NCBI GenBank assembly: GCA_903833275.1
Contig: CAILEP010000035.1
Span: forward strand, 41,602 to 105,601
Length of the DNA: 64,000 nt
Origin: an uncultured Bdellovibrionales bacterium
Lineage (GTDB): Bacteria; Bdellovibrionota; Bdellovibrionia; Bdellovibrionales; UBA1609
Reading direction: 5' to 3'
Of this stretch, positions 13,941 through 41,711 are shown piece after piece. Each line of letters opens with the position of its first letter. Positions within the stretch are counted from its first letter, which is position 1. Under the pieces are notes generated by a model. The model was not told where the DNA came from and made no database searches. It saw only the letters and a program-made list of their open reading frames with translations. A program made the position numbers and the translations under genes.

Positions 13941-14202
13941 TGTTGCAAGGCCCAGGGTCTTTCATCGACCTGGTTTACATGAACCTAATACACGATTCAT
14001 GCCAGGCAAAAACGGCTCTTGTCAGGGCGCCCGACAATTGGCCTTATTTGGCCGCTTATCGAACGTGACAATCTACCGCGAACTGCCCAGTCTTTTGACG
14101 TTGACTGCAAATTAGCCAAAGGGCAAAACATTCTTCATCTAGTTCTTTAAAGCAGGTGAAGTGACAATATTTTTACGCAGGATGTTGTCTCAAATCTGAA
14201 AC

Positions 14203-14279
14203 GCGCTCGTAGCTCAGCTGGATAGAGTACCTGGCTTCGAACCAGGGTGTCGGAGGTTCGAATCCTTCCGAGCGCACCA
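14203..14279 (+). tRNA. tRNA-Arg (anticodon TCG), CCA encoded
   Basis: Cloverleaf read by eye. Acceptor stem gcgctcg/cgagcgc, D-arm 'tagctcagctggatagagta', anticodon stem cctgg/ccagg with loop cTTCGaa, T-arm ggagg-ttcgaat-ccttc, discriminator A plus CCA. It is very similar to E. coli tRNA-Arg. Confidence 0.95.
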
Positions 14280-14352
14280 TTTTAGATACGGTACGAACCA
14301 TGGACCCTTGGGTTTCGGAGTTCGTACCGCATCCAAAGTGGCCCAGGTTGCA

Positions 14353-14565
14353 TTCTGGCTTGGCGCCAAAGATCTCAATGTAAACGCCATTTTCACGCAC
14401 AACGATCCGCCGAATTCGACTTCGAAGAATTTCGGCCTGCGCTGCAACCGATAGAGCCTCGAAAGCTCCATCTCTGAAATCTTTGATAAAAGTCATGACA
14501 TTCGAAATATCTAAGCATCTCTTATTGTTATACAATTTTAGTTTGCGATCTGCAAAAAGCACCAT
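14353..14565 (-). pseudogene. possible C-terminal remnant of a large serine recombinase
   Basis: '...LSVAAQAEILRSRIRRIVVRENGVYIEIFG' resembles the extreme C-terminus of large serine recombinases. The enclosing ORF runs antisense through the tRNA, so it is not an intact gene. Confidence 0.3.
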
Positions 14566-14746
14566 TTTTCGGCTCTTTTTTCGCGACGACCCGAACGCGG
14601 AATCTCATCCATAAAAAGATCGTAAAAGGTTTTAAAATGAGCGCGTTGAACGAAGCAAAAGTTAAACGCTAATGATCGACTCAGGGATTGGTTTTTAAAG
14701 ATTTGCGGAAATCCGAGTTGACGGAAGAAGCCAGCAACTGGCGTGA

Positions 14747-17700
14747 TTACTGCGTGCAGTGATAATTGAATTGTTGGCTCGCGGTTGGCGATGCGGAGAA
14801 GTTCATAACCAATGCTGTTGTACTGGCAGAGACATACCACTGGATCGAGCCAGGAAAGCCCGCTGCGGGCGTAATGACGCAGTAAGGAGCCGTGGTATAG
14901 GCTGAGGCAAAAGTAATGGTACAGGCTGTTGGACTTCCGGTGCCTAGGGTTACAACTCCACGGGTATCATTACCCGTAATTGCGGGTGATGTTCCGCAAG
15001 TTCCAACGGTCGCCGCTGTTCCAGAATTCGTAATATGGCCATGAACATCAAGCAGTGCTCCGGGCGCCGTAGTGCCGATGCCGACGTTACCGGTGTCAAA
15101 TGTTGTAGAGGTTCCGTTACGACCTACTGTCATCCAACTTGTACCGGAATTTTTAAAGATGACACTACCGCCGACGCTATTGACGATGGCATTGAATCCA
15201 TCGCCGACACCAAAAGAGGCGCCTCGCGAATTGGTGGTATCGGTAAACAGCGCTATGGGCGAAGCCGAGGACTGAACGTCCAGCCTTTGAGCCGGGCTCG
15301 TCGTGCCTACACCAACATTGCCATTCGTGAAATTAACGCTGCCGGTGCCGAGCGATGCGATGTTGAGAGAAATATTGGTGTCGGTGCCGCCCGCGACTCC
15401 AAGGGTCGGAGCTGAGCCATTTGATGCATTAGTAATATTAAGGCTATTTGTTGACGTATTTGCAGTTGTGTTGCCGCTTGAAAAGCTTAGAAATTTATTG
15501 CCGTAATTGATGTCAGTCATTGTGACAGAAGAAGGGAACCGCCACGAACCTGAATAGAGCCCAAGGACTGTTGAACCGCCGGCGACAAAAGAGAAACCGC
15601 CGTCACCATTGGCTTTAAAACCTGAATTTGTATAGTTCGTAAATGAATACGAAGGCGCAGCGGCACTTCCATTCGGCATGAATATCTGACCACTGCCAAT
15701 CGTGAGTGCGGCAGATGGGCTTGTCGTGCCGATTCCAACGTTGCCGGCTCCATTCAAAGTCATGACTTGCTTCGTTCCAACCGTGGCTGCTCCATCTACT
15801 CCGTAATTCCATAAGTAAAAATCAATCGCATTGTCGCCCGCGACCCCACTACTGTGCCTGGTCTTAATCGAATGTTGATATGACGTACTGTTGTTGTATG
15901 CGAACACGATCTGGTTGTTTCCAAAATAACTTGCTGAATTGCCCGCACGGAGACCGATGGCTGTGTTACTTCCAGTTCCGCCACCTGATTGATTTACGTC
16001 TAACAAATAGCTTGGCGCCGTAGTGCCGATGCCGACGTTGCCGCCTGTGAATGTCGCCGCATAGCCAGCTCCGGATTGCGCGACCGCTAAAGCCGTGTTC
16101 GCACTATTTGTATTTATCGTCTCTTGAACCGTCGTGATTCCGTTTCCGCCGGTTTGAGTGACGCCACCGCTTAGCGTCCATCCGCTGCCGTAAGTTTTCG
16201 TTAAAGTGCCGTCACCCAAGTAGATGGTTCCGGACTGACCAGCCCCTGTGATGCCGTTGTTAATCTTAACAAAACCGGTTTCGACATCGAGACCATAAGC
16301 TGGCGCCGTCGTTCCGATTCCAACGTTGCCGGCCGAGGAGATAGTCATTCGATTCGTGCCGTTTGTTGTTGTAGAGTTTGCAGCGGTATAAAAATTAATA
16401 TCAGTGGCTGCATTGAAGTAACCAGAACCTCCTCCAATTAAAACAGAACTTGTAGATGAGGTATTTGCTCCCAAGATTATGGCCTGGGGACTTTGAGCCG
16501 AGTTGTAATGTGGCATGCCAATTCTTGCGGCCTTATTTGTAGCGTCGGTTCGTGTTTTTAGAACATTATCCGCTCCAATAATTAGTCCTATGGTTCCATC
16601 GGAGATATCTAGTGAAGCACCGGGGCTTATCGTCCCAATCCCGACGCGCCCACTTGAATCAACTCGGAGGCGTTCAGAACCCCCTGTAGAAAGGGCTATT
16701 GCGCTTGCAGCAGGTTGCCATAATCCAGACGCTGTATCTGCCGAGAACGTATGAGATGGGAGGGCAGCGGTGCCTTGAGAGGCCGCAATCACGCCGCCCG
16801 AATAAATGTTTCCGGCAATTCCAACGCCTCCGCTGACCGTTAAAGCGCCCGTCGTGGTCGATGTAGATGCCGTCGAATTAGTGACCGCTCCGGTGCCGGC
16901 ACTCGTAAAGCCGCCGGTTAAGGTCGAAAGGCCCGTTACCCCTAAAGTCGTACCTACGGTGGCCGCGTTCGTGACCGCGAGGCCCGTACCTGTACCCGTG
17001 ATCGAGACATCACCTGAGAACGTGTCGTTTCCGGCGATCGTCTGGCCACCGGCGGTCGTTGCAAGCGTGAGCCGTGAGGCCGACGAATTCGTGTAATAGA
17101 GACTTGTGCCGTCGTATTCGACAGCGCCTGCTTCAGGTGTTGAAAGTAAGGTGCCTGAGTTAAATTTCAAAGGCGATGTTCCAGCGGTTGCAGTGCCGGC
17201 TTTTAACGTCAAGATTGCACTCGGTGAAGTTGTTCCGATTGCCGTTTGACCGCTTGAATTGATCCGCATTCTTTCGGTGCCACCAGTTGACCAAGCAATA
17301 GAGCTCGCTGCTGGCTGCCAAAGCCCTGAAGCCGTATCCGCCGAAAATGTATGCGATGGCAGGGCCGCCGTACCTTGCGACGATGCAACGACGCCGCCGA
17401 GATAAATATTTCCGCCAACGCCAATGCCGCCACCGACAGTCAATGCACCGGTTGTCGTCGATGTTGAAGCCGTGTTGCTGGTGATCGCACCAGCCGCCGC
17501 ACTTGTGAATCCGCCGGTTAAGGTCGTAAGACCCGTTACACCTAAAGTTGTTCCAACCGTTGCGGCGTTTGTTACTACGAGGCCCGTTCCGCTTCCGGAC
17601 ATCGTGACGTCTTGAGAAAACGATTGCGAGCCTGCACCGTTGGTAGATGCGATTGTTCGACGAGTCGCGGTCCAGTCCGTGTAGTAAAGACTTGTTCCGT

Positions 17701-20695
17701 CGTATTCGATCGCGCCCGAAAGCGGTGTCGTGAGATTCACGCCCGAAGTTAACTGCAAAGGTGCAAGCGTTGCGGTGCCGGCTTTAATGTTTAAAAGTGC
17801 GGTCGGAGAAGTGCTTCCGATTCCAACTCGGCCAGAGGTATCGACGGTCACTTGAGTCGTGCCGCCGGTTACAAGGCTTAAATTATTTGCGTCAGCAGTA
17901 CCAATCGATGCCGCAGCTCCAAAGCTGTTGCCGCCAGTTTTAAAATATCTCGAGTCGTATCCGCCCGAAGGAAGATCTGCTGCAGCCAGCGCACGGAATG
18001 TTGGCGTCGCATTTCCGCCGCTCGAGGGACCTGCAAAAACAGTATTTGCGACTTGGGTCGCGAAGGCAGAACCCGTGATGGAAATACTTGAGCACGTCCA
18101 TGATCCGCTCGGTGAAATAAACGTCAGAGTTTGGTTACTCGCGCAGATGGCCGGCATTTGCGAAGCATTGATCATGTTGCCGAGCTGAGTGGAAAGACCA
18201 GATACATCGGAGATCGCAATCGCGGTATTCACCCAGTTCGTGCCGTTGTATTTTAAATACTGTGACGATGCGAGTGATGAAATGCTGTAGGCGACACCAT
18301 TGAGTCCGGTGTTCGTGATAACCCCTGCGTTCGTCATGGTCACGTCGCCACTTGGTGTGACGGCCGTTGCGACACTTGATCCGTTACCGACCCAGATACT
18401 GCCAGAGGCAAGAGTTGAAGTTTGCTTATTATTAAATGTCATAAAGTCAGCTTGAGCCAGGTATCCATCTTGAGTCGCACTCGATTTTGAAATCGAGATC
18501 GCGGGTGTCGCTCCAGCCGAAGACGAAAGTGGTGCTGTTGCGGTGACACTTGTAACCGAACCAGTCGCGGGAACGATCCACGACATATTTCCGCTCGTAT
18601 CACTTGATAAAACGTAACCGGATGTGCCCGGAAGAGCAGGTGGAAGTTTTAAAGCGTAAGACGTTGTAATTGTGGCTGGCGCCTGAAGAGTTGCTGTCTT
18701 CGGCGTGCCTTCACTGTCATTAAGAACAACGCTTGAAAGAGTCGCGTTTGTCGCGGCGAAATTTCCCGATCCATCACGCTTCATCAAAGTCGAAACCGTG
18801 TTGGTGCTAACCGCGCCGTTCGCGAGTAGCTCTGCCGCGTGAACGTTAGCGGCCGTCGAACCACCAACGCTTGCAACAACGGTTGCCCCTTGAGTGCCGG
18901 TGACGTTACCGGCAAGTGAGCCCGTGAAATTTGTTGCGGTGGTTGCGGTTGTCGCAGTCGTTGCACTTCCAGCCGTCAGAGCGCTTTGTGCCGTACAGGT
19001 CCAACCGGTCGTCGTGTTCCAAGTGAGAAGCTGGCCTGATGCGCAGGCAAGGGGTGCCAGCGTAGATCCGTCGTTGGAATCCGTCGCGACGAGTTGGCTG
19101 ACACCTGGGTTCGTAAATAATTTGGCGGTCGTGATGGCGCCGTTGTTAATTTTGGCCGTCGTCACCGCATTCGCGTTGATCGTTGGATTAGGATATGTGC
19201 CGCCAAGATCGCCGCCCGCAGAACCACCAGGCGTCACACCTGTGATCGTAACGTTTCCGGCGTTCGTCAGCTGACCTTGAGCATTAACCGTAAAACTGGG
19301 GACTTGGGTCGCTGAACCGTAGCTTCCTGCGGTGACCGCAGTGTTTGCAAGGTTCACCGTGACCGAGCCCGAGGTGCCACCACCGCTTAAGCCGGTCCCT
19401 GCCGTAATGCCGGTCAATGTACCGACTTGCGGAGAGTTCCACGAAAGATTTCCCGAAGCATCCGTCGTTAGAACTTGCCCGGCGCTGCCAAGAGTTGGTG
19501 GAAGTGTGAGCGAGTAACTATTAGCTAAGTTCGAAACCGTTTGAAGTGTGACTTCATGAGAACCTGAATCATAAATTTGAACGTTTCGGCCGGTGATGTT
19601 TGTGCCCGAGATCGTTGAAGCCACAACCGAGTTTGTGGTCGTAATCAAACCCGATGTGTTAATCGCGGTCGTTCCACCAATTGTTCCCGAATTGATTGCA
19701 CCGCCGAGGACATGACCTGCTGTTTGGATCGTCGGCAGATCAGTTTCAACTAATGAGCTCGATCCGGTGACTCGTCCGTATTGGTCAACGGTCACTTTCG
19801 GATACGTGCCGGCTGTCACTCCACTTGGCGAAAGCGAGATCGTTCCCGATGTCGTGATCGGACCGCCCGTAAGACCTGCTCCGGTCGCAACTGAAGTCAC
19901 CGATCCGCCCGAAGTCCCGATGGTTTGGGTTGAAGTGCCGGTGCTAAACTCAATGCTGTTTGAGCCGGAGTCATACCAAATCTGCCCTGCCGACGGCGAA
20001 GTCGGCGCCGAAGAAAGAACGGGCAAACTCGCTCCGCCCGAAGAAGCGTGCATGTACTGGGTGGATAATCCACCAATCAAATTTTGAAGCTCGGTGAAAT
20101 TCGCGGGACTCAGTGCCGTCGCCGGCTGGGCGTTGCCGCTGCTATCTTCAACTCTGACAAGCGATGACAGTGGAGCACCGCCAACAGCCGATGAGTCCGT
20201 GGCGTAGGCCGAATGGGTCAACGTTGTGACCGGCATTTGATCCCAGGTTGCCATCGCACTGTCTTTAAAATAAATCAAGACCTTGCGTTCATCCGAAGCG
20301 CCCGGCGTATATGTTACGGTCCCCGAACCTGATGCACAGTTCGTGGATGCGACCGGAAACGAGCTTCGGTTTGCAAGGGTTTGCGCAAACGTCCATGTGT
20401 TCGTGTCGTTTCTGGTTCCAGTTCCGTCGTTAAGGGAAACTGAAAAAAGACCCTGCGAATTCGCCAGGTTTTTGGTCTGGGTCTCATCGTAAAGAATGCA
20501 CTGGTGATCTGGACTCAAAACCTGAACACGGAACTGCATCGCCGTTGATTTAAACGGCGTTCCGTTTGCGTCCGCGATGCGGCCTTGGAGCGTGAGAGAC
20601 TGCGCAAGAGAACTTTCAGAATAGAAAAAGGCCACGACAACCGTCGCGAGACACAAAGCAAGTTTGTTGATACGGAAAGACCTCGTTTTTTTCAT
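14747..20695 (-). CDS. giant secreted repeat fibre/adhesin (phage-tail-fibre-like; resembles Bdellovibrio mosaic adhesive trimer fibres)
   Basis: 1982 aa from the Met at 20695, with signal peptide [33 protein letters not shown]. The composition is Gly/Thr/Ser/Ala-rich. The N-terminal half has phage-tail-fibre repeats ('[21 protein letters not shown]'). The C-terminal half has 8 copies of 'G-N-V-G-I-G-T-T-(S/A)-P'. The tip is Cys-containing. Confidence 0.8.
16622..17833 (-). repeat. diverged tandem duplication (~582 and ~600 nt units) inside the fibre gene
   Basis: Two ~195-aa units each run from a GxxxIG(T/S)(T/I)SP motif through '...[13 protein letters not shown]...[15 protein letters not shown](T/S)TLTGGFTSA...[24 protein letters not shown]...'. 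The motif copies lie at 17804-17833, 17222-17251 and 16622-16651. Confidence 0.85.
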
Positions 20696-20860
20696 AGACC
20701 TTAAAGAACTCATCGGCGAAATCGCCGATAGTCTTTGCAGGGCTTTAGGCAATAAAAATGATCTCTACTCACATTGAGATTAAGGTCCGAATCTCGTTAT
20801 GGACCAGGAGATTGCGATGCAGGTAAATCATTTTGATCTACAAGACCCAAGATAAAGGTC

Positions 20861-23137
20861 TTAGTAATCAAATAAAAGTCGCATTTCGACGGTCGAGAAA
20901 ATCGCGCTGTGCTCGCCGTGTTCGGTGACCTGGGGATCAGAATAATTAAAGTGCAGATCGTTATACTGACCGAGCCAGTGGAGTCCAAGCCAAGCGTGCT
21001 CGGAAATATTTTTTTCTATTCCGATCGAGCCGTCGAAAATAAACGGTGAGGTCACCGTAAAGGTAGCGCCCGAGGATGTGGGTGAAGCCGATAGCGGATA
21101 CTGAAAATGCATTAAGATACTGGCTCGCGTCCACGGGTTGAGGTAACGCACGTAACTTCCGCCGAGGCTTAAATTGATGAGGTCGACATTTCGTAACGTC
21201 GGCAGATTTCCAGAGTTTTCAAAAAGAGCGAGCGGGATCTGGTGTAACTGAAGGCCCCACAGCCAACGAAATTCAGAAATATAAGGAAGATTTGTGTTGG
21301 GCGCGGGCGTAAATAGCAAGTTCGACCGGCTGGATCCTTCGAGCGTCATGATTTGCCACTGCGCATGCGTCGTCGAAAGTCCGACCGACGAGTTATCAAA
21401 GCTTAAATCCGTTGAGCGCAACGAAACACCTACGTCCACTTTGTCTGTTACTTCAAAGTTCGCACCAAAGTTCCAACTTTCAGTTGGAAGGCTGTGATAG
21501 CTGGTTTGAACGTCAAAAAGATTTTCTTGATAAGCGAAGTAAGTGGCTCCGACTCCGGCAAAAAGCTTAAGGCCAATCGGCGGCCGTTTTGGAGGGGCGC
21601 TGGCGGTTGCTTGAGGTAAGGGAGCCGTAACCGGCGGATCGATCCTAGGGACCGGCGGCAGCTCTCGTGGCGCGGGTGGTTGGGGAATAACCAGGGGAAC
21701 TGGAGGCAGTTCTAAAGCCCGCACTTGAACAGATTCAGAAGGTGGTACATTCGAAACCGGCTTAAGGATCGATTCAATGACTTTAAGTTGGGCCGGTGGA
21801 GTCACCGAAACTGGAGGTGGTGGCGCAACAGTTGTCGTCGTTGGTGCCAGTGTGGTTGTGGTTGATGGAATGAGGGACGTGGGTGGAGCGGGCACTAGAG
21901 TCGTCGGAGTTTCCGGCGGCACCTGAGCAGGCTCGCGCGGCGCTAAAACCGGCGCATCAACGATGACGTTGATAATACCTGTCTGGGAAATCAGATCAGG
22001 GCGATTTTTCGCCTTTGAGGTCACACGCCAGTACAGTGTTCCCTCTTGAAGTCGGTTCAGCGCAAATTCAGTTTTTTCGACTTCAATCGCGTCCTTGATG
22101 TCGTGAAAGTCAGAACTGACAGACGTTTCAATCCGAAAGAAATCACTTCCAACAAGGTCCTTCCAAAGAAGAGTCGCTGACTGATCGAAGCGACCCTTGT
22201 CGTCCCGCTTGACATGAAATTCCATTTTTTCTTTTTCGAGCTGCGGTGGTGTCAGTGGATTTAAAGAAAAACTAGAGACAGGGCTTTGATCAGAACCCGG
22301 CTCCTCGCCGACGATACGCCAGAAATAAGTGGCCGATGGCTTTAGCAGCGTCGTGGCGTTTTCGCCTTCGACGGTGATCGTTTGAAGGTCGGCTTTAAAT
22401 TCAGGATCCTGGGAAACCTCAAGCCGCATCGACTTTGTTAAAGACGGAGACCAGGCAAATTCGACCGGCTTTCCGTCATCCCATAACGTCGCAGCCGGTT
22501 CAGGGCTCAGAAGCGTCACGGCGTGAGTCGTCATTTGAGTTTGTCCGCCAGCTGAAATTTTTAACTCTTCGTTCGCTTTAACGACCTGTGGCTCAGTGGA
22601 CTTCGATGCATTTGTGACGTTCGCTTCACCATGTAAAACAACGAGATTCAGATCGTCACCGGAAGCGCCCAGCCGAATCGTCGCTCCGTCAGAGGTGACA
22701 TTAGTTTCCCTGCCCTTGTACTTCACAAGCAGAGTAACGCCTTTTCTAATGTTAGTTAAAAATCCTCCCGCGCTTAAATTCACGGCCGACTTTTTGTTTT
22801 CGTCAGAAATTAAAATCGGGCTATTGGGTTCAACCGTAAAATTCTCAAGGTTTTTAAGTTTAACCTTCGCTGCAGATTTTTCTCCAGTGAATACGCGATC
22901 ATTTGAAAAAACATTGGCGTCTCTAGAAACGGGGCTCCAAGACACGTCTGTGTCGCCTTTAATCCGGATATCTGCGCCGACGGGTTTAACAGAGCCGAGA
23001 CTTTCGCGTGCGTTGGTAATATCAGACCTGTCGTTGCGATTGAAGAAAAGGTATCCACCGGAACCGAGCATTCCGATCAAACAAAAAAACATTAAGATGA
23101 ATTCTGGTCTTCGTCGCCAGCCCGTGGAGCGAGACAT
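20861..23137 (-). CDS. FecR-domain protein with two Ig-like repeats, a ~115-aa Pro/Thr-rich linker and a C-terminal outer-membrane beta-barrel-like domain
   Basis: 758 aa with an N-terminal hydrophobic anchor (FILMFFCLIGMLGSGGYLFF). A FecR-like segment follows (VFSNDRVFTGEKSAAKVKL...), then repeats ending YFWRI and LYWRV, then a PPxP-rich stretch. The last ~260 aa have alternating hydrophobic strands and end in the OMP beta-signal 'VEMRLLFDY'. Confidence 0.7.
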   Translation of the reverse strand: MSRSTGWRRRPEFILMFFCLIGMLGSGGYLFFNRNDRSDITNARESLGSVKPVGADIRIKGDTDVSWSPVSRDANVFSNDRVFTGEKSAAKVKLKNLENFTVEPNSPILISDENKKSAVNLSAGGFLTNIRKGVTLLVKYKGRETNVTSDGATIRLGASGDDLNLVVLHGEANVTNASKSTEPQVVKANEELKISAGGQTQMTTHAVTLLSPEPAATLWDDGKPVEFAWSPSLTKSMRLEVSQDPEFKADLQTITVEGENATTLLKPSATYFWRIVGEEPGSDQSPVSSFSLNPLTPPQLEKEKMEFHVKRDDKGRFDQSATLLWKDLVGSDFFRIETSVSSDFHDIKDAIEVEKTEFALNRLQEGTLYWRVTSKAKNRPDLISQTGIINVIVDAPVLAPREPAQVPPETPTTLVPAPPTSLIPSTTTTLAPTTTTVAPPPPVSVTPPAQLKVIESILKPVSNVPPSESVQVRALELPPVPLVIPQPPAPRELPPVPRIDPPVTAPLPQATASAPPKRPPIGLKLFAGVGATYFAYQENLFDVQTSYHSLPTESWNFGANFEVTDKVDVGVSLRSTDLSFDNSSVGLSTTHAQWQIMTLEGSSRSNLLFTPAPNTNLPYISEFRWLWGLQLHQIPLALFENSGNLPTLRNVDLINLSLGGSYVRYLNPWTRASILMHFQYPLSASPTSSGATFTVTSPFIFDGSIGIEKNISEHAWLGLHWLGQYNDLHFNYSDPQVTEHGEHSAIFSTVEMRLLFDY

Positions 23138-23260
23138 TTAGATATAGATCGGCTTAAAATGAGATAACCTAGATGAGCTTTGGACGATTTATGGGAGATT
23201 TCGACCTAGGTCTCGTGACGATTGTCGATCATGACCTACGTCAACGATTCGAGGGGCTGA

Positions 23261-23542
23261 TTATTGCGTCTGGCCGATGACGTTGAGCTGGTATCGGTTG
23301 CCCGAGATGGTCGTGCCTTGGAGGTCTTTTAGATTCGCACCAAGCGACACGCTCGCCGTGCCGCCGAGCTGAGTCGACTTTTGCAAAAACCCGCCGTTTG
23401 CCACGCCGAGGCCAGGGGCATAGGTCGCCACCGTATCCGGATTGTTCGCACGATTTCCTAGAAACGTAACGGTGTTTGTCTTGTTGCACGCTAAAAGCGA
23501 CAGCTGGGCCAATATGAAAACGCTATATTTAAGCCACTTCAT
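23261..23542 (-). CDS. small lipoprotein
   Basis: 93 aa with signal peptide plus lipobox 'LSLLAC'. It sits on the same strand as, and upstream of, the FecR/barrel gene. Confidence 0.6.
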   Translation of the reverse strand: MKWLKYSVFILAQLSLLACNKTNTVTFLGNRANNPDTVATYAPGLGVANGGFLQKSTQLGGTASVSLGANLKDLQGTTISGNRYQLNVIGQTQ

Positions 23543-23574
23543 GATACCGGTTATCGGCGTTTTGATCGAATTTC

Positions 23575-23985
23575 TTAAGCACGACTTTTAGCCGGAGCTC
23601 TTGGTTTTTTTGGCGTCTTCTCTGCCGTGGTATCGCGAATAGACTTATTTGGTTTATGTCTTTGGGATGCGCCGTAAGGGATAAAGGAAAATGCCCCGGC
23701 GAGAACGCCTTCGAGTTCGACGGCATTTAGATTTTGGCTTTGAAGCTGCATAAGCATTCCGGCAAGTTCACCGGCCTTCATTTCAATTCGGACTAAATCG
23801 GCGATGACGGCCGATGTCGGTTTTTGGGCTTTATGCACGATATAAAGTGCCAAGGTGCTTGTTAGAAGATGGTTGAGAGCCGACGAGAGTTGGCTGGGCG
23901 TCAGTGGCCGAACCGTGATGGGCTTCGCCTTCGTCTGGTGGACCGCCTTTCTAATTTTTGATTTCAAGGTCCCCTCCTTCACCAT
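23575..23985 (-). CDS. hypothetical basic protein
   Basis: 136-aa ORF with Lys/Arg-rich termini and no recognisable motif. It is the first gene of the minus-strand cluster and diverges from the XRE gene. Confidence 0.4.
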   Translation of the reverse strand: MVKEGTLKSKIRKAVHQTKAKPITVRPLTPSQLSSALNHLLTSTLALYIVHKAQKPTSAVIADLVRIEMKAGELAGMLMQLQSQNLNAVELEGVLAGAFSFIPYGASQRHKPNKSIRDTTAEKTPKKPRAPAKSRA

Positions 23986-24101
23986 TAAGCAAAAAACAAT
24001 CAGTAACCCGTAGTTCCAGCATCGTGTTTAAGTCCCCACTTCGCAAGCAAAATTAATACCCGAAGCTCTGGCTACGTTGATGCTTCAGATTCGGGGTAAG
24101 C

Positions 24102-24314
24102 TTGGTTAAGATACGGAAAATATTTTCAAAAAACCTGACGCGCTTAAGAAAACGAAAAGGATTTACCCAGGAAGACCTTGCCGAAAAACTCGGGATCTCC
24201 GTGCGCTATATCCAACAACTCGAAGGCATCAGGTGTCCCGATGTAAAGATTGAAACGATCGCGGTCCTTGCCAAGGCCCTTCATGCATTGCCCGGAGAAT
24301 TTTTTGAACCCTAA
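24102..24314 (+). CDS. XRE-family helix-turn-helix transcriptional regulator
   Basis: 70 aa; 'LRKRKGFTQEDLAEKLGISVRYIQQLEG' is a classic HTH_3 pattern. The start is TTG. Confidence 0.75.
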   Translation: MVKIRKIFSKNLTRLRKRKGFTQEDLAEKLGISVRYIQQLEGIRCPDVKIETIAVLAKALHALPGEFFEP

Positions 24315-24362
24315 GCCGTTCGTGGAATGTATAAAAAACGATGGCGCGAGAAGAGTCATTGA

Positions 24363-25511
24363 GTGATAAAAAGTCCAGACGAAATTGAGCACGGGCTCGA
24401 GACGACAATTAGGCGTGCGATTGATGACAATCGGATCGTTGGAACCGTCGTCATCGTTGCTCTGAACGGACAGGTGCTTTATCGAAAGGCTTCGGGCTTT
24501 CTTGACCGTGAGGCTCGTCGACCGATGCGAGAAGATACGATATTTCGATATGCCTCGCTAACGAAGCCGATCGTATCGGCTGCGGCACTTTCTCTGATCG
24601 ATTCTGGAAAAATGAATCTCAACGACGAGGTCACGCGCTGGATTCCCGCTTTCAATCCTCATCTTGCGAACGGACAAGCACCGACGATCCGGATTCGACA
24701 TCTTTTAACTCATACTTCGGGCTTAAATTACGGATTTTTCGAACCAGACGGACAAGGACCCTATCATGCACATGGAGTGTCTGACGGACTTGATCATCCT
24801 CATATCAGTTTACAAGAAAATTTAAAGCGCCTTGGGAACTGTCCGCTGCTTTTTGCGCCAGGAACCGAATGGAGATATTCGCTCGCGACAGATGTGCTAG
24901 GCGAAGTCGTGAGCCTTGCCGGCGGAGCAGATCTACAGGCGGTCGTTAGAAATCTTATAACTGGGCCGCTCAAAATGAACGAGACGGAGTTTTGGGCTAT
25001 CGATCCCGATCGTCTTGCGGCTCCCTATGCGGATGGAAACCCTAAGCCATTGAGAATGGCGGTTGAACATCGTCTTCCCTTTCGCGGGGGCATTGCGTCC
25101 TTTTCGCCGGCACGTGCGCTCGACAAAACCGCGTACCCTTCTGCGGGAGCCGGAATGGTCGGTACTGCCGATGATTTTCTGAAGTTTCTGGAGTCCCTTC
25201 GTCAAGGTGGCGCGCCCATTCTTAAGCCAGAGACGGCGCAGGCCATGACCTCGAACCAAGTTGGCGAGATACCAGTCGCGGCACGCGGGCAGGGCTGGGG
25301 CTTTGGTTTTGGATGTGCGGTTGTGACCGATCCGAAAACTGCAAAGACGCCGGCGCAGAATGGAAGTTTTGAATGGGGCGGCGTCTATGGAAACTCTTGG
25401 TGGGTCGATCCGAAGGCGGGTCTCACCGTGGTTGCTCTGACCAATACAGCTTTTGAAGGAATGGACGGAGCTTTCCCAAAGGAAATTAAAGCTGCCGTTT
25501 ACGGATTATAA
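24363..25511 (+). CDS. serine hydrolase, beta-lactamase/transpeptidase-like (class C/esterase type)
   Basis: S-x-x-K motif 'ASLTKPIV', 'LLTHTSGL', a Tyr motif 'WRYSLATDVLG', and 'FEWGGVYGNSWWVDP'. The start is GTG. Confidence 0.85.
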   Translation: MIKSPDEIEHGLETTIRRAIDDNRIVGTVVIVALNGQVLYRKASGFLDREARRPMREDTIFRYASLTKPIVSAAALSLIDSGKMNLNDEVTRWIPAFNPHLANGQAPTIRIRHLLTHTSGLNYGFFEPDGQGPYHAHGVSDGLDHPHISLQENLKRLGNCPLLFAPGTEWRYSLATDVLGEVVSLAGGADLQAVVRNLITGPLKMNETEFWAIDPDRLAAPYADGNPKPLRMAVEHRLPFRGGIASFSPARALDKTAYPSAGAGMVGTADDFLKFLESLRQGGAPILKPETAQAMTSNQVGEIPVAARGQGWGFGFGCAVVTDPKTAKTPAQNGSFEWGGVYGNSWWVDPKAGLTVVALTNTAFEGMDGAFPKEIKAAVYGL

Positions 25512-25622
25512 CGCCGGCAAGGCATGCGACGTTAGTCTCGTTCAGTCGTGCTAAGTCGCTTAAAATCGTTTAGACGACGGATCTGTGCTTAAATCGCTTA
25601 TAAGCTACAATCCGCTAATTTT

Positions 25623-25647
25623 AATATTCATATACATTGTGAATATT
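25623..25647. promoter_or_regulatory. palindrome upstream of abiEi, candidate autoregulatory operator
   Basis: aatattca-N9-tgaatatt lies 24 nt upstream of the ATG at 25671. Imperfect direct repeats 'gtgctaagtcgcttaaaa' and 'gtgcttaaatcgcttata' lie further upstream (25548-25602). Confidence 0.4.
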
Positions 25648-25670
25648 GGATATGTTTGTTAAAATTGGTC

Positions 25671-26255
25671 ATGAGCAATGCCCTGCAGAATCTTCTTAAA
25701 ACGACGGAGACCTTTACCGCAGCCGAAGGCCGCGCTTGCGGTGTTGCCCCGAGTCTACTTGCTTATTACGTGAAGACAGGCCTCCTCGAGCGAGTTTCAC
25801 GCGGCGTTTATCGGAATCTTAAAAAAGACCCTTCTACTCCTATGGAGTGGGCGAATCTGGTGGCGACTGTCGATAGTGTTCCGACCGGAGTTGTATGTCT
25901 TATTTCGGCTCTTGTTATTTATGAAATGACTGAGGAATTTCCAGAGGAACATTGGATTGCTGTACCCCGAGGTCAGTGGCGACCGAAAAGAAAAAATACG
26001 CGAGTCATTTGGCTCACGAATATGAAGCTTGGCCTTACAAAAATAAAAATCGGTAAAAAATCGATCCCAATATTCAATCGCGAGAGAACCGTCGTCGATG
26101 CATTTCGCCTTCTGCCGATTGAAACTGCGATCAAAGCACTAAAAATTTATCTGACGTCGACGGAGTCTCACAACCCGGATCTTCGACGACTTAATGCATA
26201 CGCGAACAAACTTCGCTTCGATATTTCTCCCTACGTCATGGCCCTCACAACATGA
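25671..26255 (+). CDS. AbiEi-family type IV toxin-antitoxin antitoxin (wHTH)
   Basis: 'TFTAAEGRACGVAPSLLAYYVKTGLLERVSRGVYRN' matches the AbiEi_4 N-terminal pattern. Its stop overlaps the next ORF's start (ATGA). Confidence 0.75.
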   Translation: MSNALQNLLKTTETFTAAEGRACGVAPSLLAYYVKTGLLERVSRGVYRNLKKDPSTPMEWANLVATVDSVPTGVVCLISALVIYEMTEEFPEEHWIAVPRGQWRPKRKNTRVIWLTNMKLGLTKIKIGKKSIPIFNRERTVVDAFRLLPIETAIKALKIYLTSTESHNPDLRRLNAYANKLRFDISPYVMALTT

Positions 26256-27112
26256 ATCAATCTATTGAGCGTTCGATTAAAGACAGAGTTAAAAGAATTG
26301 CGCTCGATCAAGGCCGCGAATTCGGCGCAGTTTGGCTCGAAGTTGTTCTTGAGCGCTGGCTCGCACGCATTCATAAATCAAACTACAAAGAGCATTTTAT
26401 TTTTAAGGGCGGAATGTGTCTTCGCGAGTATTTGCCCATTGGTCGCGAGACTCAAGATCTCGATTTCTTACTGAAGGGACTCCCGGCAACTCGAGATGCT
26501 CTCGTGAAGACTTTCGATGAAATCAGTCAGATTGATCTTGAAGACGGCTTTAGCTTCAAAGCCATCAGCGTAAGCGACCTTGCGCATCCACATATGAAAT
26601 ATCCGGGCTTCGCCATCACCATGCGCGCCGAGCTCTCTCAGACCAGAACGCCTCTCAGGATCGACATTGGCATCGGTGACATTGTAAAGCCTCAAAATCT
26701 GACGATTCATCTATCGGAAAACAAGGGCGGTCCGCTCTTTGAAAAAGAAATCGATCTGTGGGCCTATTCGCCCGAGGCGATTTTCGCGGAGAAATTTGAA
26801 ACGGCCGTCAAACGAGATTCTTTGAACAGTCGAATGAAGGACTATCACGACCTTTAATTGCTGGTCGCAGCCGGAATTCTCGATCATGAAAAAACCAGAG
26901 AAGCGATTCGAGCTACATTCAAGCATCGAGGCACAAAGTTGTCGTCCAGTCTTGAGTTTCCCGCCAACGCGATCGAGAAAATGAATACACTTTGGATGAA
27001 TCATCTAAAAAAACTAAAGGCCTCGAAACTGAAACCTGCTTTGCCACCGCACTTTTCTGACGTCCTGGCGGAAATCAACAGATGGACTGAGGCGCTGTCG
27101 CTGAAAGGTTGA
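26252..27112 (+). pseudogene. AbiEii-family nucleotidyltransferase toxin interrupted by an in-frame TAA at 26855-26857
   Basis: 'FIFKGGMCLREYLPIGRETQDLDFLLKG' is the NTase core. ORFs 26252-26857 and 26858-27112 share one frame, and together (~286 codons) they match the usual AbiEii length. The junction reads ...MKDYHDL*LLVAAGILDH. Confidence 0.7.
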
Positions 27113-27170
27113 TCGGCGAAGAGTTGTCAGCTCGACCAGGCGCATACCAGTTTAGATAAGCGCGGGCTAT

Positions 27171-27545
27171 GTGGCGACCTTTGTGCATAGATGTGTTGGC
27201 GGTATCGGCACGACGGCTCCGGCCTATAAAGTCGATGTCGTCGGCGACGTGGTCGTGACAAACACTTCGAATTTTTACGTGCGAGACAACGGTGGAACAC
27301 CTCGAAGTATTGCCTCAATCGACGCCTTCAATTCCATGTCGCTTGGATCTGGAACGACGAGCCCTTTAAGAATTGGCGATAACGCCTCTGGCGTAGAAAT
27401 TGGTGGCGTGCCCGGAAATCCTGCCAGCAAGCTCAGCGTTTACGGCAATCAATCCATCGGTGCCGGCTATGCGACGGTAGCGGCGCCGACGAACGGACTT
27501 CTGGTTCAAGGTAATGTTGGAGTTGGCACAACTGCCTGTAGTTAG
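27171..27545 (+). pseudogene. orphan single module of a fibre protein
   Basis: It begins inside the motif ('[18 protein letters not shown]') and ends inside the next motif ('[11 protein letters not shown]'). It has no signal peptide and no N- or C-terminal fibre parts. It is homologous to the motif regions of the 14747-20695 gene. Confidence 0.55.
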
Positions 27546-27653
27546 AACTTCCGATTTCATACTGAAATATCCTAATTTTTCAGATCTGTCGGAAGAATAA
27601 CAAACGAGCCCGCTTCCAAAATCCTAGATCACCGTGATGAAAATTCAGTGGCA

Positions 27654-27848
27654 TCATCGGCTCTCAGGCAGAGGCTTGTCGGAAGGCGCCGTTCGGTGAA
27701 GTTTATGGTTCATTTCGACAAGTGACGGTAGTCCTTGCGAGGCCTTCTCAAGGGCCGCTTTTCGAACGGTTCCATAAAAGTTAGCGGCGGCGCGAGTGCC
27801 GCCCCAAATTCCTACGACGACAAGTACGGCGCTGATAATTTCCTTCAT
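27654..27848 (-). CDS. small membrane protein
   Basis: 64 aa with an N-terminal TM helix. AGGAGGA lies 5 nt upstream of the ATG, which sits 9 nt after the upstream stop. Confidence 0.45.
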   Translation of the reverse strand: MKEIISAVLVVVGIWGGTRAAANFYGTVRKAALEKASQGLPSLVEMNHKLHRTAPSDKPLPESR

Positions 27849-27857
27849 CTGATCCTC

Positions 27858-28334
27858 CTAAAGTTTGTCTTTCCAACGTTTAAAGATATTGAACACGGTT
27901 TTGCTGTCCCACTTCGTTCGGCCGGCTCGGTTTTTCAGACCGCGCCTTGAGAGCTCGCGTGCGACTTCGCTCTTATTTTGTCCTTGTCTTTTGATGAGCT
28001 CGACAACAAGTTTGCAGATGCGTTGCTCGGCCTTGTTAAGCACAAGCTTTCCGTCCTTCACCGCGTGACCATAAGGAATCGATGGGTTGCGGTAATTGTC
28101 GGGGTTACTGGATCGCCCCTTGCCGGTGCCTCCGTGGACGCTCTGGGAACGAAGATGTGAAGTCACAGTGCTACGGGAAACGCCGAACTGCGCGGCAATT
28201 TGCGCCTTCGATTTGCCCTCAAGCTGGTGCAAATCGCGGATTTTAGCTGAATTTAGAAGTTGCGTACAGAGGCAGATTTCAATAAAGTCGCATAGATAAG
28301 GTGTGTTCGTACCGTATTCGGGTTGGCGCACCAA
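27858..28334 (-). CDS. HTH plus 'Recombinase'-domain protein lacking the resolvase catalytic domain (truncated serine-recombinase derivative)
   Basis: HTH 'SKAQIAAQFGVSRSTVTSHL', then 'PYGHAVKDGKLVLNKAEQRICKLVVELIKRQGQNKSEVARELSRRGLKNRAGRTKWDSKTVFNIF', which matches the PF07508-type recombinase domain. There is no catalytic-Ser N-terminal domain, zinc ribbon or coiled coil. The start is TTG/GTG. Confidence 0.6.
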   Translation of the reverse strand: MVRQPEYGTNTPYLCDFIEICLCTQLLNSAKIRDLHQLEGKSKAQIAAQFGVSRSTVTSHLRSQSVHGGTGKGRSSNPDNYRNPSIPYGHAVKDGKLVLNKAEQRICKLVVELIKRQGQNKSEVARELSRRGLKNRAGRTKWDSKTVFNIFKRWKDKL

Positions 28335-28457
28335 AAACTTTCTAATCGCCTTTCATACTTCGTTGCCCCGCCCTCGCTTCGCTGCGACGTGCGATTACGC
28401 ACGCCTCACTTCGCTCGTTCGGTAACGCCTCGTCTGAAAGGCAATTAGAAAGTTTTT
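28333..28457. repeat. 125-bp element bounded by 23-bp terminal inverted repeats (22/23 match)
   Basis: Left arm aaaaactttctaatcgcctttca (28333-28355) and right arm tgaaaggcaattagaaagttttt (28435-28457). A central hairpin cgtgcg-atta-cgcacg lies at 28388-28403, and internal 'ctcgcttcgct' and 'ctcacttcgct' form direct repeats. Confidence 0.8.
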
Positions 28458-28629
28458 AGATTGTGGGGCGCTCAGCTTGCAGGGCTAGTTGCCTATGGCA
28501 TTCGTGGGCCAAAAGTCATGGGTCAAGTTGTCGGAGAAAATGTCAGGCAAGAGGCCAGACAAATACAAGCGGGTGGCGAACTAGGTGGGGTAGAGCACCT
28601 TGAAGGTCATCTCATATTGATCCAAAATG

Positions 28630-28658
28630 TTGACATCAGAGTAAATATGCCGTAAATT
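28630..28658 (+). promoter_or_regulatory. sigma70-type promoter; predicted leaderless transcript for the ATPase gene
   Basis: TTGACA (28630-28635), a 17-nt spacer, then TAAATT (28653-28658). The ATG at 28666 is 7 nt after the -10 box, and there is no Shine-Dalgarno sequence. Confidence 0.5.
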
Positions 28659-28665
28659 TACCCAC

Positions 28666-29817
28666 ATGATAGACAGATTGATAAAGCCCCAATTATTGAA
28701 AGCAGCTAAAAGTGCTCTCTTAATAGGGCCAAGGCAAACGGGTAAATCAACTTTGCTTGGGCAACTTAAGCCTGATTTGACAATTAATTTAGCCGATGAA
28801 AATGAGTTTTTAAGATATTCGGTTGAGGCCAATTTGCTGTCGGAGCAAATTCAATCTAACGCTTACAAGCTTGTTTTAATCGATGAAATTCAGCGTATTC
28901 CAAGTTTAATGAATACGATCCAATTTCTATTAGATGATGCGAAGGTGAGAAAAAAACCTTTACGGTTTTTGCTGTCGGGCTCTAGTGCTAGAAAATTAAA
29001 GCGTGGCCATGCCAATCTGCTACCAGGTCGAGTTTTTTCTTACCAGTTATCCGGTGTCTGTGCGGCTGAGGTTTCGTATAGTCTTGATATAAATCGCTGC
29101 ATGAAATTTGGCTTTCTGCCAGAGCCTTTTTTAGAGAAATCTGAGTTTGATGCGCAAAAACTTCTAGAGAGTTATGGTGCCACCTATTTAAAAGAAGAGA
29201 TTCGGTCTGAAGCGCTATCGAGAAATCTTCAAGGGTTCGCTCGCTTTTTGATGGCAACCGCGAGTGTGGCAGGGCAGGTTGTCGATATGTCTAAAATGGC
29301 TTCTAAATCAAAAGTTTCGAGAAGCAGTGCAGCCCGTTTTTTTGAAATACTTGAAGACACCTTGATTGCTCAACGAATTGCCACCTATGAGGGCGCCGAG
29401 GGTGCCGATATTATAAAACACCCCAAGCTCTATTATTTTGATGTTGGTGTACTCAATGGTCTTCTGAATAACTTTGAGTGCTCAGGTGATCGAAAAGGTT
29501 TGTTATTTGAGCATGTGGTTTATAATCAACTTAGAAATTCGTTTATGGCGCGTGATTTTTCAGTTCAAATTGAATACTTCAGAACCAGACATGGCCTTGA
29601 AATTGATTTTATTGTTAAGGTTAAAAATAAGACTTGGGCTATCGAAGTTAAATCTGGTCATGTCACGGATTCTGATTTGCGGGCCTTAAAAGAATTTAAG
29701 CAATACAAGTCATCGGTTGATCATTTCGCTGTCGTCAGCATTAATGAAAAGAAGCGAATGAAAAATGGCATATTAATTTGTGATTTGCCGACGCTTTTGA
29801 ACGAAATGGGGCTTTAG
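28666..29817 (+). CDS. AAA_14 / DUF4143-family ATPase
   Basis: Walker A 'GPRQTGKSTLL' and Walker B 'LVLIDEIQ', with a C-terminal DUF4143-like region ('YFDVGVLN', 'EIDFIV...WAIEVKSG'). It is visibly AT-richer than its neighbours. Confidence 0.85.
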   Translation: MIDRLIKPQLLKAAKSALLIGPRQTGKSTLLGQLKPDLTINLADENEFLRYSVEANLLSEQIQSNAYKLVLIDEIQRIPSLMNTIQFLLDDAKVRKKPLRFLLSGSSARKLKRGHANLLPGRVFSYQLSGVCAAEVSYSLDINRCMKFGFLPEPFLEKSEFDAQKLLESYGATYLKEEIRSEALSRNLQGFARFLMATASVAGQVVDMSKMASKSKVSRSSAARFFEILEDTLIAQRIATYEGAEGADIIKHPKLYYFDVGVLNGLLNNFECSGDRKGLLFEHVVYNQLRNSFMARDFSVQIEYFRTRHGLEIDFIVKVKNKTWAIEVKSGHVTDSDLRALKEFKQYKSSVDHFAVVSINEKKRMKNGILICDLPTLLNEMGL

Positions 29818-30011
29818 GTCGGCCGCGCCGACCGTGAAAAAACAATTTGCCCCTCTTCGGTCAAAGTGAGTTTTTTCGAGGTAGATCGAATGATTAGTTT
29901 TTTGCCTAAGAAATCTTCAAGGGTCGCGACCTGTAGACTTACGGCAGATTGGGCGATTCTCAGTTCTTCTGCTGCTTTTGTGAAGCTCTTAAGCTTTCCA
30001 ACCGTCCAGAA
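29817..30011 (-). pseudogene. LysR-family regulator fragment (HTH domain only)
   Basis: 'SFTKAAEELRIAQSAVSLQVATLEDFLGKKLIIRSTSKKLTLTEEGQIVF' is the LysR N-terminal wHTH. The first ~8 codons and the whole effector-binding domain are missing. Confidence 0.6.
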
Positions 30012-30018
30012 AACGTTG

Positions 30019-30120
30019 TCTCCGATGGCCATCGCCAGTATAGAGTACGCAATTGCAAACCTGGGTACGAGCCTCATCGTAGTTCTTGGGCACACAAACT
30101 GTGGCGCCGTAAAGGCGGTA
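30019..30120 (+). pseudogene. beta-class carbonic anhydrase internal fragment
   Basis: 'SIEYAIANLGTSLIVVLGHTNCGAVKAV' matches the conserved beta-CA segment around the His/Cys zinc ligands. The upstream CxDxR motif and the C-terminus are absent. Confidence 0.5.
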
Positions 30121-30158
30121 TCGCGGGCAAAAACACGCCCACATTTGTCTATTAGGCA

Positions 30159-30206
30159 TTGGTTCAAATATTGGTTCAAATATTGGTTTAAACATTGGCC
30201 TAAATA
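30159..30206. repeat. 12-bp tandem repeat, 4 copies
   Basis: ttggttcaaata, ttggttcaaata, ttggtttaaaca, ttggcctaaata, then a partial 'tttgg'. It lies 21 nt from the MFS stop codon. Confidence 0.9.
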
Positions 30207-30226
30207 TTTGGCTGGCGATCGTGTCC

Positions 30227-40529: not shown

Positions 40530-41711
40530 ATGAATTCGACAATATTTCGTTTGGGTCTAGTTTCATTTTTTGCCGACATTTCGAGCGAGATGCTTTACCC
40601 AGTAACCCCACTGTTTCTGACAGTTGTTTTGGGTTCTAGCATGCTGCAGGTTGGGGTTATCGAAGGGGCAGCTGAGGGCATTGCAAGTCTTTTGAAGACC
40701 TATTTTGGCGCGTGGTCAGATAGAACGCAAAAGCGCTTACCCTTTGTTTTCACGGGTTATCTATTGTCGGCACTTTCAAAGCCACTTATTGGATTGTCGT
40801 CGTCTTGGTTTGGGGTCTTGGGAGCGAGAGCAGTTGACCGCGTCGGCAAAGGCGTACGGACAGCCCCGCGAGATGCCCTGCTGGGCGAATCGGTGGTTGC
40901 AGAAGAGCGCGGGCGAGCCTTCGGGTTTCATCGCGGCATGGATTCGGCTGGGGCCGCTATTGGGCCACTGCTCGCGCTTTTTGTGACCAGCGAAAACATG
41001 CGGCAGTATTACTATTGGGCCGTCGTGCCAGGCCTAATCGCAGCCGCCCTTGTTCTGACGGTGAGGCCATTAGGGACTCCGCAGGTGACACCAAAGAAAC
41101 CCCCAGCGCCAAAAGTGGCCTTTTCAGTTTTCTGGCGAGCCCAGACTTCAAATTTTAAAAAATTCGCCTTTGCTCTTGGTATTTTTGCGTTCACCAATTC
41201 GAGCGATGCATTTTTGCTTTTAAAAGTGAAGGCGAGCGGTTATTCGTTTTTTGCGACAATCATGTTTTATTGCCTCTACAATTTAATTTATTCGATATTT
41301 AGCCCTATTTTCGGTCGTTTTTCAGATCGATCGCGGCACGGCTTTATTTACGGTCGGCAAAGAATGTTTTCTATCGGGCTGCTGATTTTTGTTTTGGTTT
41401 ATATTGGTTTTTCGATCGCCCATTTGTCCTTGTGGGCATTTGGATTGCTGTTTTTATGTTATGGTCTCTACATGGCGGCCACGGACGGTATCAGTAAGGC
41501 CTTAGCACTCGATTTTATGACCACAGAGATGCACGCAACCGGCCTCGGCCTCATCGGCACGATCACTGGCATTGCTACGATATTTGCGAGTGTTTCAGCC
41601 GGTTTCTTGTGGGATCATCTCGGGCCATCGTTCGCATTTCTTTATGGCGCCTCGGGTGCGATTGTCACTATCGTGCTGATTTTAGGGTTGAAAACAAAGA
41701 TTCCACATTGA
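40530..41711 (+). CDS. MFS transporter
   Basis: 393 aa with about 12 TM helices and the MFS loop 'GAWSDRTQKRLPF'/'RAVDRVGKGVRTAPRDAL'. Confidence 0.8.
   Translation: MNSTIFRLGLVSFFADISSEMLYPVTPLFLTVVLGSSMLQVGVIEGAAEGIASLLKTYFGAWSDRTQKRLPFVFTGYLLSALSKPLIGLSSSWFGVLGARAVDRVGKGVRTAPRDALLGESVVAEERGRAFGFHRGMDSAGAAIGPLLALFVTSENMRQYYYWAVVPGLIAAALVLTVRPLGTPQVTPKKPPAPKVAFSVFWRAQTSNFKKFAFALGIFAFTNSSDAFLLLKVKASGYSFFATIMFYCLYNLIYSIFSPIFGRFSDRSRHGFIYGRQRMFSIGLLIFVLVYIGFSIAHLSLWAFGLLFLCYGLYMAATDGISKALALDFMTTEMHATGLGLIGTITGIATIFASVSAGFLWDHLGPSFAFLYGASGAIVTIVLILGLKTKIPH

Follow-up and report, generated by a model that had tools for sequence, protein, structure and literature searches.

A long fibre of the mosaic adhesive trimer family with a lectin-like tip, predicted in an uncultured Bdellovibrionales bacterium

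A 64,000-nucleotide stretch of DNA from an uncultured Bdellovibrionales bacterium (hereafter the window; positions 41,602 to 105,601 of contig CAILEP010000035.1 in GenBank assembly GCA_903833275.1) carries a gene for a secreted, fibre-like protein of 1,982 amino acids (aa). We consider it very probable that this protein is a fibre from the superfamily of mosaic adhesive trimers (MATs), namely of its non-S74 subgroup, and that it works as follows. A Sec signal peptide would export the chain, and an N-terminal MAT domain of ca. 150 aa would hold the fibre on the cell's own surface. Next, phage-fibre-like repeats that take up ca. 750 aa, and seven beta-helix modules with a capping loop to close each of them, would together form a long trimeric shaft of ca. 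0.1 µm, as scaled from Bd3182 with its 922 aa and about 550 Å. At the far end, a small and probably disulfide-stabilised lectin-like beta-sandwich would bind a molecule on the surface of another bacterium, most probably a glycan. In this picture we infer trimerisation, surface display, disulfides, the ligand, and the role in prey or host recognition.

The gene is a single, intact open reading frame (ORF). Its longest version spans 14747..20752 on the reverse strand with 2,001 codons from a TTG at 20752, and we favour the ATG at 20695 (MKKTRSF...) as start codon, with AAGG ahead of it and a typical signal peptide behind (Table 1). Relatives of the protein have equivalent signal peptides immediately ahead of the N-domain, and an identical 1,982-aa sequence is already present in public collections. 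The protein is rich in threonine (15.7%), glycine (13.4%), serine (12.9%), and alanine (11.6%), a composition that is the probable cause of the raised local G+C content of ca. 54% compared to 48.6% genome-wide. Consensus scans for promoters and terminators around the gene gave site numbers no higher than those in shuffled sequence.

All 21 MATs of Bdellovibrio bacteriovorus HD100 share a beta-rich domain of ca. 130 aa directly after the signal peptide, and the study describing it left its binding partner open (Caulton et al. 2024, PMC10769870). We composed a profile (A2) from the fibre's own N-domain and 11 relatives, none of them from B. bacteriovorus, and searched a B. bacteriovorus-type reference genome (G085), i.e., a single 3.8-Mb contig in which a 1,038-codon frame contains the Bd2133 crystal sequence (8OND) at 100% identity. 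The profile matched the N-termini of 19 ORFs of 627–1,964 aa with E-values (E) of 5e-38 to 9e-13. Frames of 1,038, 627, 633, 868, 654, 922, and 1,158 codons among them fit Bd2133 (1,031 aa), Bd2872, Bd2740, Bd2734, Bd3442, Bd3182, and Bd1334, respectively. The order and pairing of the 19 matches along the chromosome likewise seem to fit the published list of 21 MATs (bd0704/0705 ... bd2734/2740 ... bd3266/3267, bd3442; PMC10769870 Suppl. Tables S1/S4).

In the opposite direction, the fibre protein was matched by a hidden Markov model (HMM) of 50 MAT N-domains, including those of the G085 ORFs, with 123 bits and E 3e-36. BLASTP against full-length Bd2133 aligned its residues 9-485 with residues 1-477 (E 6e-29) and its residues 1296-1567 with residues 631-884 (E 8e-17). 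The named homologues are exclusively Bdellovibrio, Pseudobdellovibrio, or Bdellovibrionales records, many of which carry the S74 domain (PF13884), and a search with a narrower N-domain alignment matched metagenome-assembled genomes of Bdellovibrionales and not B. bacteriovorus. The domain, which contains two invariant cysteines, is presumably the end by which the fibre is attached to the cell surface. An initial annotation, made by a model from the sequence alone, had likened the layout to that of the mosaic adhesive trimers of B. bacteriovorus and proposed a BLASTP comparison with Bdellovibrio fibres; in these direct tests N-domain, capping loops, and modules all match B. bacteriovorus MATs.

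In Bdellovibrio MATs, trimeric beta-helix modules are sealed at their edges by capping loops, which follow the consensus V-G-G/N-pi-x-x-P-x-x-x-L, as in Bd2133 NVGIGATAPTAKLE, Bd0884 NVGIGATSPSAKLQ, and Bd2439 NVGIGTTTTTEKLN (PMC10769870). The regular expression G[NRQ][VT][GA][IV]G[TS][TI][SA]P finds exactly eight matches in the fibre protein, as the initial annotation had counted from ca. 17.8 kb, and none in 5,000 shuffles of it; among the ORFs of the 3.08-Mb genome with 200 aa or more, the fibre is the only one with a match. The same annotation had described each motif as followed by xxL(D/N/T)(V/I), of which the conserved leucine pattern holds and the two-residue gap does not: Three residues separate the loop proline from L(D/N/T)(V/I/L), e.g., TALLNI, AYGLDV, or GALLDV, as in the published consensus. 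Judged by their sequence, the eight motifs thus correspond to the published MAT/S74 capping loops. Their spacing is uneven with 194, 200, 107, 96, 99, 141, and 77 aa between successive motifs before the 104-aa tip. Since capping-loop fibres occur in many phyla, the loops alone would be insufficient to define a MAT.

The loops delimit modules of two kinds. The first two are tandem, diverged copies of 195-200 aa that are 64-79% identical as proteins and, with copies spaced 600 nt apart, 71% identical along 300 nt of DNA, so that their duplication is old rather than recent. They are followed by five short modules of 77-141 aa each that are homologous to crystallised MAT beta-helices. When a profile of modules and relatives (A4) was searched against all sequences in the Protein Data Bank (PDB), only MAT structures were matched, i.e., 8OND (4e-33), 8OML (2e-19), 8OJN (2e-17), 8ON4 (5e-10), and 8OL4 (5e-8), which represent Bd2133, Bd1334, Bd3182, and Bd2439. 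Similarly, a phmmer search of the PDB with the whole protein matched Bd2133 (8OND, E 3e-7) and Bd3182 (8OJN, E 7e-4), and the loops aligned in register.

This specific profile homology to solved MAT beta-helices bears on the idea that the protein is a generic autotransporter or YapH-like repeat adhesin resembling a fibre in composition only. Its wealth of threonine, glycine, serine, and alanine would suit such an adhesin, as would the database names of relatives ("beta strand repeat-containing protein" or "cell wall surface anchor family protein"). However, the protein shows no autotransporter barrel, YadA anchor, or other Pfam domain; unlike trimeric autotransporter or YapH-like adhesins it has no C-terminal membrane anchor or translocator domain, and it ends in a small beta-sandwich of soluble type. 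We regard a generic adhesin as extremely improbable.

Both features of a MAT that can be read from a sequence, the N-domain and the capping-loop beta-helix modules, are present in the fibre, given the profile and BLASTP matches of the former and the matches of the latter to characterised MATs. As a third feature, the C-terminus of MATs varies between an S74 chaperone and an adhesive tip that folds by itself. Peptidase_S74 (PF13884), the C-terminal domain with an SDxxxK motif that marks the S74 subgroup, has no match in the fibre protein or anywhere in the 97%-complete genome, which places the fibre in the non-S74 subgroup, and the 104-aa tip folds alone in prediction.

On its own, this tip is predicted by AlphaFold2 as an all-beta, eight-stranded beta-sandwich with a mean predicted local distance difference test score (pLDDT) of 85.8. 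Its four cysteines are invariant across 15 aligned tip relatives with the pattern C-x24-C-x13-C-x40-C (alignment A1), and in the exported tip they could reasonably form two disulfides. An exhaustive HMMER search retrieved 3,052 representative proteins of 100–2,600 aa with this domain, nearly always at their extreme C-terminus. The family also occurs on IMG/VR viral contigs, where some carriers match tail-spike or tail-fibre PHROGs. It is found in 16 of 301 sampled Bdellovibrionales genomes from six families, and the tip profile has no match in G085. A 626-aa protein (P0096) had, by its length, been considered as a candidate for Bd2872 and was rejected, because it is a fragment on a 2-kb contig and G085 is without any match to the tip profile.

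Foldseek compared the tip model to the PDB and returned the Helix pomatia H-type lectin, R-pyocin fibre feet, AP22 gp53, and the C-terminal domain of the Pam1 tailspike, all with E of at least 0.02. Examples are 4MTM (probability 0.99, TM-score 0.47, root-mean-square deviation 3.3 Å over 76 columns, with a weak E of 0.1) and 2CCV (E 0.02, TM-score 0.39). The five crystallised MAT tips are all missing from the 50 best fold matches. Agreement is better with predicted viral structures, the nearest being a fibre protein of an uncultured Caudovirales phage (E 7e-7, TM-score 0.69, 34% identity), and other matches in this set are named H-type lectin and gp53-like C-terminal domain. Pfam has no match for the fibre's own tip, while PF21882 (Gp53-like_C) weakly matches 5 of the 15 tip relatives with a best E of 0.003. 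We presume that the tip is the receptor-binding domain, and its modelled fold suggests that it is probably a phage-type receptor module that binds carbohydrates.

Several observations weigh against assigning the protein to a MAT that recognizes prey. A Pfam search of the whole fibre protein gave zero family matches. For aa 1296-1600, AlphaFold gave a poor monomer model (pLDDT 62) that is confident just in the surroundings of the loops and reaches a TM-score of only ca. 0.2 to MAT chains. Such poor monomer predictions are usual for intertwined trimers. A Foldseek search with this low-confidence model had MATs as all of its top 15 PDB matches and, further down, fibres of T5 and T4 as well as VgrG/gp5 spikes, a ranking that lends the MAT fold weak support and is not independent of the sequence. 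For the tip, the E-values of the PDB matches given above are weak, and "lectin-like" describes a resemblance in fold rather than an activity. The predatory lifestyle of the uncultured host is assumed from its taxonomy only, and a single MAT fits poorly with the broad prey-recognition repertoire suggested by the 21 of B. bacteriovorus.

The host genome (3.08 Mb, 97% complete) belongs to the same order as G085 and to a different family. It encodes exactly one protein with a MAT N-domain, also when searched with the broad 50-sequence HMM and all filters off, compared to the 19 matched in G085, 0-15 in genomes of the same family, 21 in B. bacteriovorus HD100 (PMC10769870), and 29 reported for Peredibacter (PMC13147790). 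A protein built like a MAT could serve something other than prey recognition, e.g., attach the cell to surfaces, to kin, or to a substrate that is eukaryotic or particulate, or be a structural coat fibre of a host that may not be a predator at all. This would suit the lone MAT N-domain protein, the 61 of 109 same-family genomes without a MAT N-domain at E<=1e-6, and the wide distribution of capping-loop fibres outside predators (PMC10769870 Suppl. Table S3). On the other hand, the fibre shares its N-domain with B. bacteriovorus fibres whose presence both at the surface of the predator and in its invasion vesicle has been demonstrated (PMC10769870), and its tip is of the class that phages use to bind bacterial surfaces. 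On balance we find such a non-prey role unlikely and continue to favour a MAT fibre that binds other bacteria.

Between the N-domain and the modules lies a stalk of internally repeated segments that resemble phage tail fibres. The initial annotation had quoted two motifs from this part at ca. 19.8 and 19.3 kb, which indeed lie at 19760-19822 (21 residues) and 19256-19336 (27 residues), and had ascribed them to P2/Mu-type tail fibres. A general likeness to tail fibres is borne out: The stalk matches the tail-fibre PHROG profiles phrog_38058 and phrog_7389 with E 2.7e-7 and 1.4e-4. By tblastn, the stretch at 19760-19822 aligns over 31-42 aa with tail-fibre genes of Pseudomonas phages and of Aeribacillus phage AP45 as well as with one gene annotated as "hypothetical protein" (51-65% identity, E 8e-5 to 5e-3). 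The more specific attribution is not backed by these matches, from which P2 and Mu themselves are absent.

This resemblance raises the question of whether the gene is that of a phage, prophage, or tailocin tail fibre left in the chromosome rather than a cellular adhesin. Such an origin would be in line with the tail-fibre PHROG matches (phrog_9942 at 8e-17 as well as phrog_18345 and phrog_38058), with the viral contigs and PHROG-matching carriers of the tip family, and with the position of the gene beside a tRNA in a variable region with an AbiE toxin-antitoxin pair and gene remnants. However, the chain begins with a Sec signal peptide, behind which lies the MAT N-domain, a domain specific to Bdellovibrionales and found at the start of large ORFs in their genomes, and tblastn against GenBank phages gave no match to a 566-aa stalk query and none to the tip. 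The neighbouring ORFs that were scanned matched no phage structural family, i.e., no capsid, terminase, baseplate, or sheath. The context of the gene, with QueF, tRNA-Arg, a serine hydrolase, and AbiE, is chromosomal and not that of a prophage. A stranded phage gene is thus very unlikely, and a MAT fibre remains the reading that we prefer.

The gene is a mosaic in which the closest relatives of N-terminus, middle modules, and tip lie in different proteins, and its tip family is shared with phage tail fibres. The first ca. 430 aa are 35-49% identical in family members, while relatives match the middle and C-terminal modules at differing positions and in differing combinations. One protein of 1,256 aa (P0033) is 38% identical in the N-domain and 76% identical in the tip with nothing alignable in between, and a 687-aa ORF in genome G035 combines a MAT N-domain with the same tip. 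No orthologue of the fibre is found in genomes of the same genus, and the closest full-length relative shows 45% identity over 52% of the length. Together with the missing tip in G085, this low similarity weakly backs the earlier suggestion of a new variant. Further tips and tip swapping had been explicitly anticipated in the MAT paper (PMC10769870), so that mosaics of this kind were already predicted and the novelty of the fibre is modest.

Three side observations relate to modules and tips. First, capping loops 5 and 8 share 28 of 30 nt including an exact run of 26 nt, while their flanks are unrelated (17/39), and this 26-mer has no exact match in IMG/VR; the identity could be due to chance or a small gene-conversion tract. 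The idea of a recombination handle formed, letter for letter, by the DNA of the capping loops is unsupported here since the loops other than 5 and 8 differ at synonymous sites. Second, the host genome encodes another secreted fibre-like protein (locus L014, contig C5:14426-17680, forward strand) of 1,085 aa with many GQVL..G..APSW-type repeats, whose tip is 41% identical to that of the fibre with the same four cysteines. It has no recognisable MAT N-domain (hhalign probability 20%, no HMM match with filters off) and no capping loops, so that one tip family is found on two scaffolds in a single genome. Third, a metagenome scaffold from the European Nucleotide Archive (locus L087) carries three giant S74-type MAT genes of 2,269, 2,543, and 2,388 aa head to tail, a tandem MAT array of a type that is not seen in the genome of the fibre.

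Table 1. Coordinates of the fibre gene, its parts, and two neighbouring features (positions of the window).
Feature	Position	Strand	Remarks
MAT-family (non-S74) fibre gene	14747..20695	-	1,982 aa; stop codon 14747-14749
Sec-type signal peptide	20603..20695	-	aa 1-31; likely cleavage between SLA and Q, predicted from sequence
MAT N-terminal beta-rich domain	20147..20599	-	aa 33-183; two invariant Cys
Stalk of internally repeated, phage-tail-fibre-like segments	17891..20146	-	aa ~184-935; internal repeats, PHROG profiles, short phage matches
Two tandem diverged modules, 195-200 aa	16592..17926	-	aa 924-1168 and 1118-1368; each ends at a capping loop
Capping loop 1	17804..17833	-	regular expression; fits consensus in PMC10769870 Fig. 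4c and Suppl. Fig. 18
Capping loop 2	17222..17251	-	regular expression
Capping loop 3	16622..16651	-	regular expression; aligns with Bd2133 loop NLGLGTAAP in 8OND
Capping loop 4	16301..16330	-	regular expression; phmmer alignment
Capping loop 5	16013..16042	-	regular expression; DNA 28/30 identical to loop 8
Capping loop 6	15716..15745	-	regular expression
Capping loop 7	15293..15322	-	regular expression
Capping loop 8	15062..15091	-	regular expression; immediately ahead of tip
Five short beta-helix modules, 77-141 aa each	15062..16651	-	bounded by loops 3 to 8; homologous to crystallised Bd2133, Bd1334, Bd3182, Bd2439 beta-helices
C-terminal tip, 104 aa	14750..15061	-	predicted eight-strand beta-sandwich, four invariant Cys
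758-aa gene	20861..23137	-	directly upstream, same strand; transmembrane anchor, FecR-like domain, two repeats, Pro-rich linker, beta-rich C-terminus ending LLFDY
tRNA-Arg(TCG)	14203..14279	+	468 bp beyond fibre stop codon; boundary of conserved synteny

In the genome, conserved synteny ends at the tRNA-Arg gene downstream of the fibre gene. The QueF-tRNA-Arg arrangement is kept in two genomes of the same genus, and everything beyond the tRNA differs. In the window, this part (14280-30300) comprises the fibre gene and its FecR-like neighbour, a serine hydrolase, AbiEi/AbiEii, a helix-turn-helix remnant, an AAA_14/DUF4143 ATPase, and the genes for LysR and carbonic anhydrase in truncated form. 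The region has the look of variable accessory DNA that was possibly acquired, though neither a tRNA-derived nor an att-like direct repeat was found to delimit an island. The AbiEi antitoxin and AbiEii nucleotidyltransferase toxin form an intact-looking pair at 25656-26857 on the forward strand. An ORF of 130 aa (14173-14565, reverse strand) that overlaps the tRNA-Arg on the opposite strand is probably not a gene.

Directly upstream of the fibre gene, the 758-aa protein was matched by Pfam FecR with E 7e-5, just short of the cut-off. In four other genomes (G004, G006, G007, and G018), which represent three genera of the same family, homologues of 754-809 aa lie no more than 1 kb from a MAT gene and are divergent from it. 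They resemble the 758-aa protein only in the N-terminal 150-280 aa with 23-25% identity and, in the case of G018, additionally in the C-terminal 170 aa. The pairing of FecR-like and MAT genes is therefore recurrent but local, because no such homologue was found beside the MAT loci of G085 or, for 19 MAT loci of other Bdellovibrionales, in their 8-kb flanks. It is conceivable, if rather doubtful, that the fibre and this putative envelope protein with its proline-rich spanner and aromatic C-terminal end would form a functional pair that exports or anchors MATs in this family.

Compared to known systems, the fibre is most similar to the non-S74 MATs Bd2133 (8OND, 8OK3) and Bd1334 (8OML, 8ON4) of HD100, which likewise have a signal peptide, the N-domain, a long repeat shaft, and capping-loop beta-helix modules (PMC10769870). 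It also shares with the non-S74 MATs of HD100 a beta-sandwich tip that is not a chaperone and the mosaic relations between paralogues. However, it has about double the length (1,982 aa compared to ca. 1,000 aa) and eight capping loops compared to three in Bd2133. Unlike the non-S74 MATs of HD100, it contains an internal tandem duplication, is the sole MAT of its genome, and belongs to a host from another family. Its tip, furthermore, differs from those of the HD100 MATs in having no sequence match in G085 and in the absence of solved MAT tips from its 50 best fold matches. Outside B. bacteriovorus, long MATs with alternative tips are known that measure 1,600-1,900 aa, e.g., Pseudobdellovibrio exovorus A11Q_1788 (1,621 aa, TNF-like tip) and Halobacteriovorax marinus BMS_2153 (1,915 aa, S74; PMC10769870 Suppl. 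Table S3), from which the fibre is set apart by the descriptions of their tip types.

With S74 MATs and S74 fibres of phages (Bd3182, 8OJN/8ONC; T5 pb1, 4UW8; K1F endosialidase, 3GW6), the fibre has the capping-loop motif and the type of trimeric beta-helix module in common, as reflected in the 8OJN profile match and in the T5 L-shaped fibre among the weaker fold matches. Unlike this group, neither the fibre nor the host genome has a Peptidase_S74 chaperone/protease domain. Tips of the H-type-lectin/Gp53-like_C class (PF21882; 4MTM, AP22 gp53; 2CCV, Helix pomatia agglutinin; 6CL6, R-pyocin fibre foot; 7EEA, Pam1 tailspike) resemble the predicted tip in being small, distal, C-terminal beta-sandwiches of trimeric fibres, and the tip compares to structures of this class with Foldseek probabilities of 0.96-1.00 and TM-scores of 0.39-0.51. 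It departs from them in its own missing Pfam match and in PDB E-values that do not fall below 0.02.

While the current picture of the MAT family is unchanged by this fibre, it would extend the family of prey-recognition fibres to an uncultured Bdellovibrionales lineage in which a genome can carry one very long fibre. It would also add a tip class to the MAT repertoire, i.e., a four-cysteine, phage-type, lectin-like beta-sandwich that is common in environmental fibres and phage proteins. The tip is compact, with only 104 aa that are predicted to fold confidently, and hence a candidate for expression and ligand screening, while the recurrent FecR-like neighbour offers a lead on how the fibres may be mounted on the cell. 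More generally, the fibre supports the idea of a single pool of receptor-binding modules that is shared by predators and phages.

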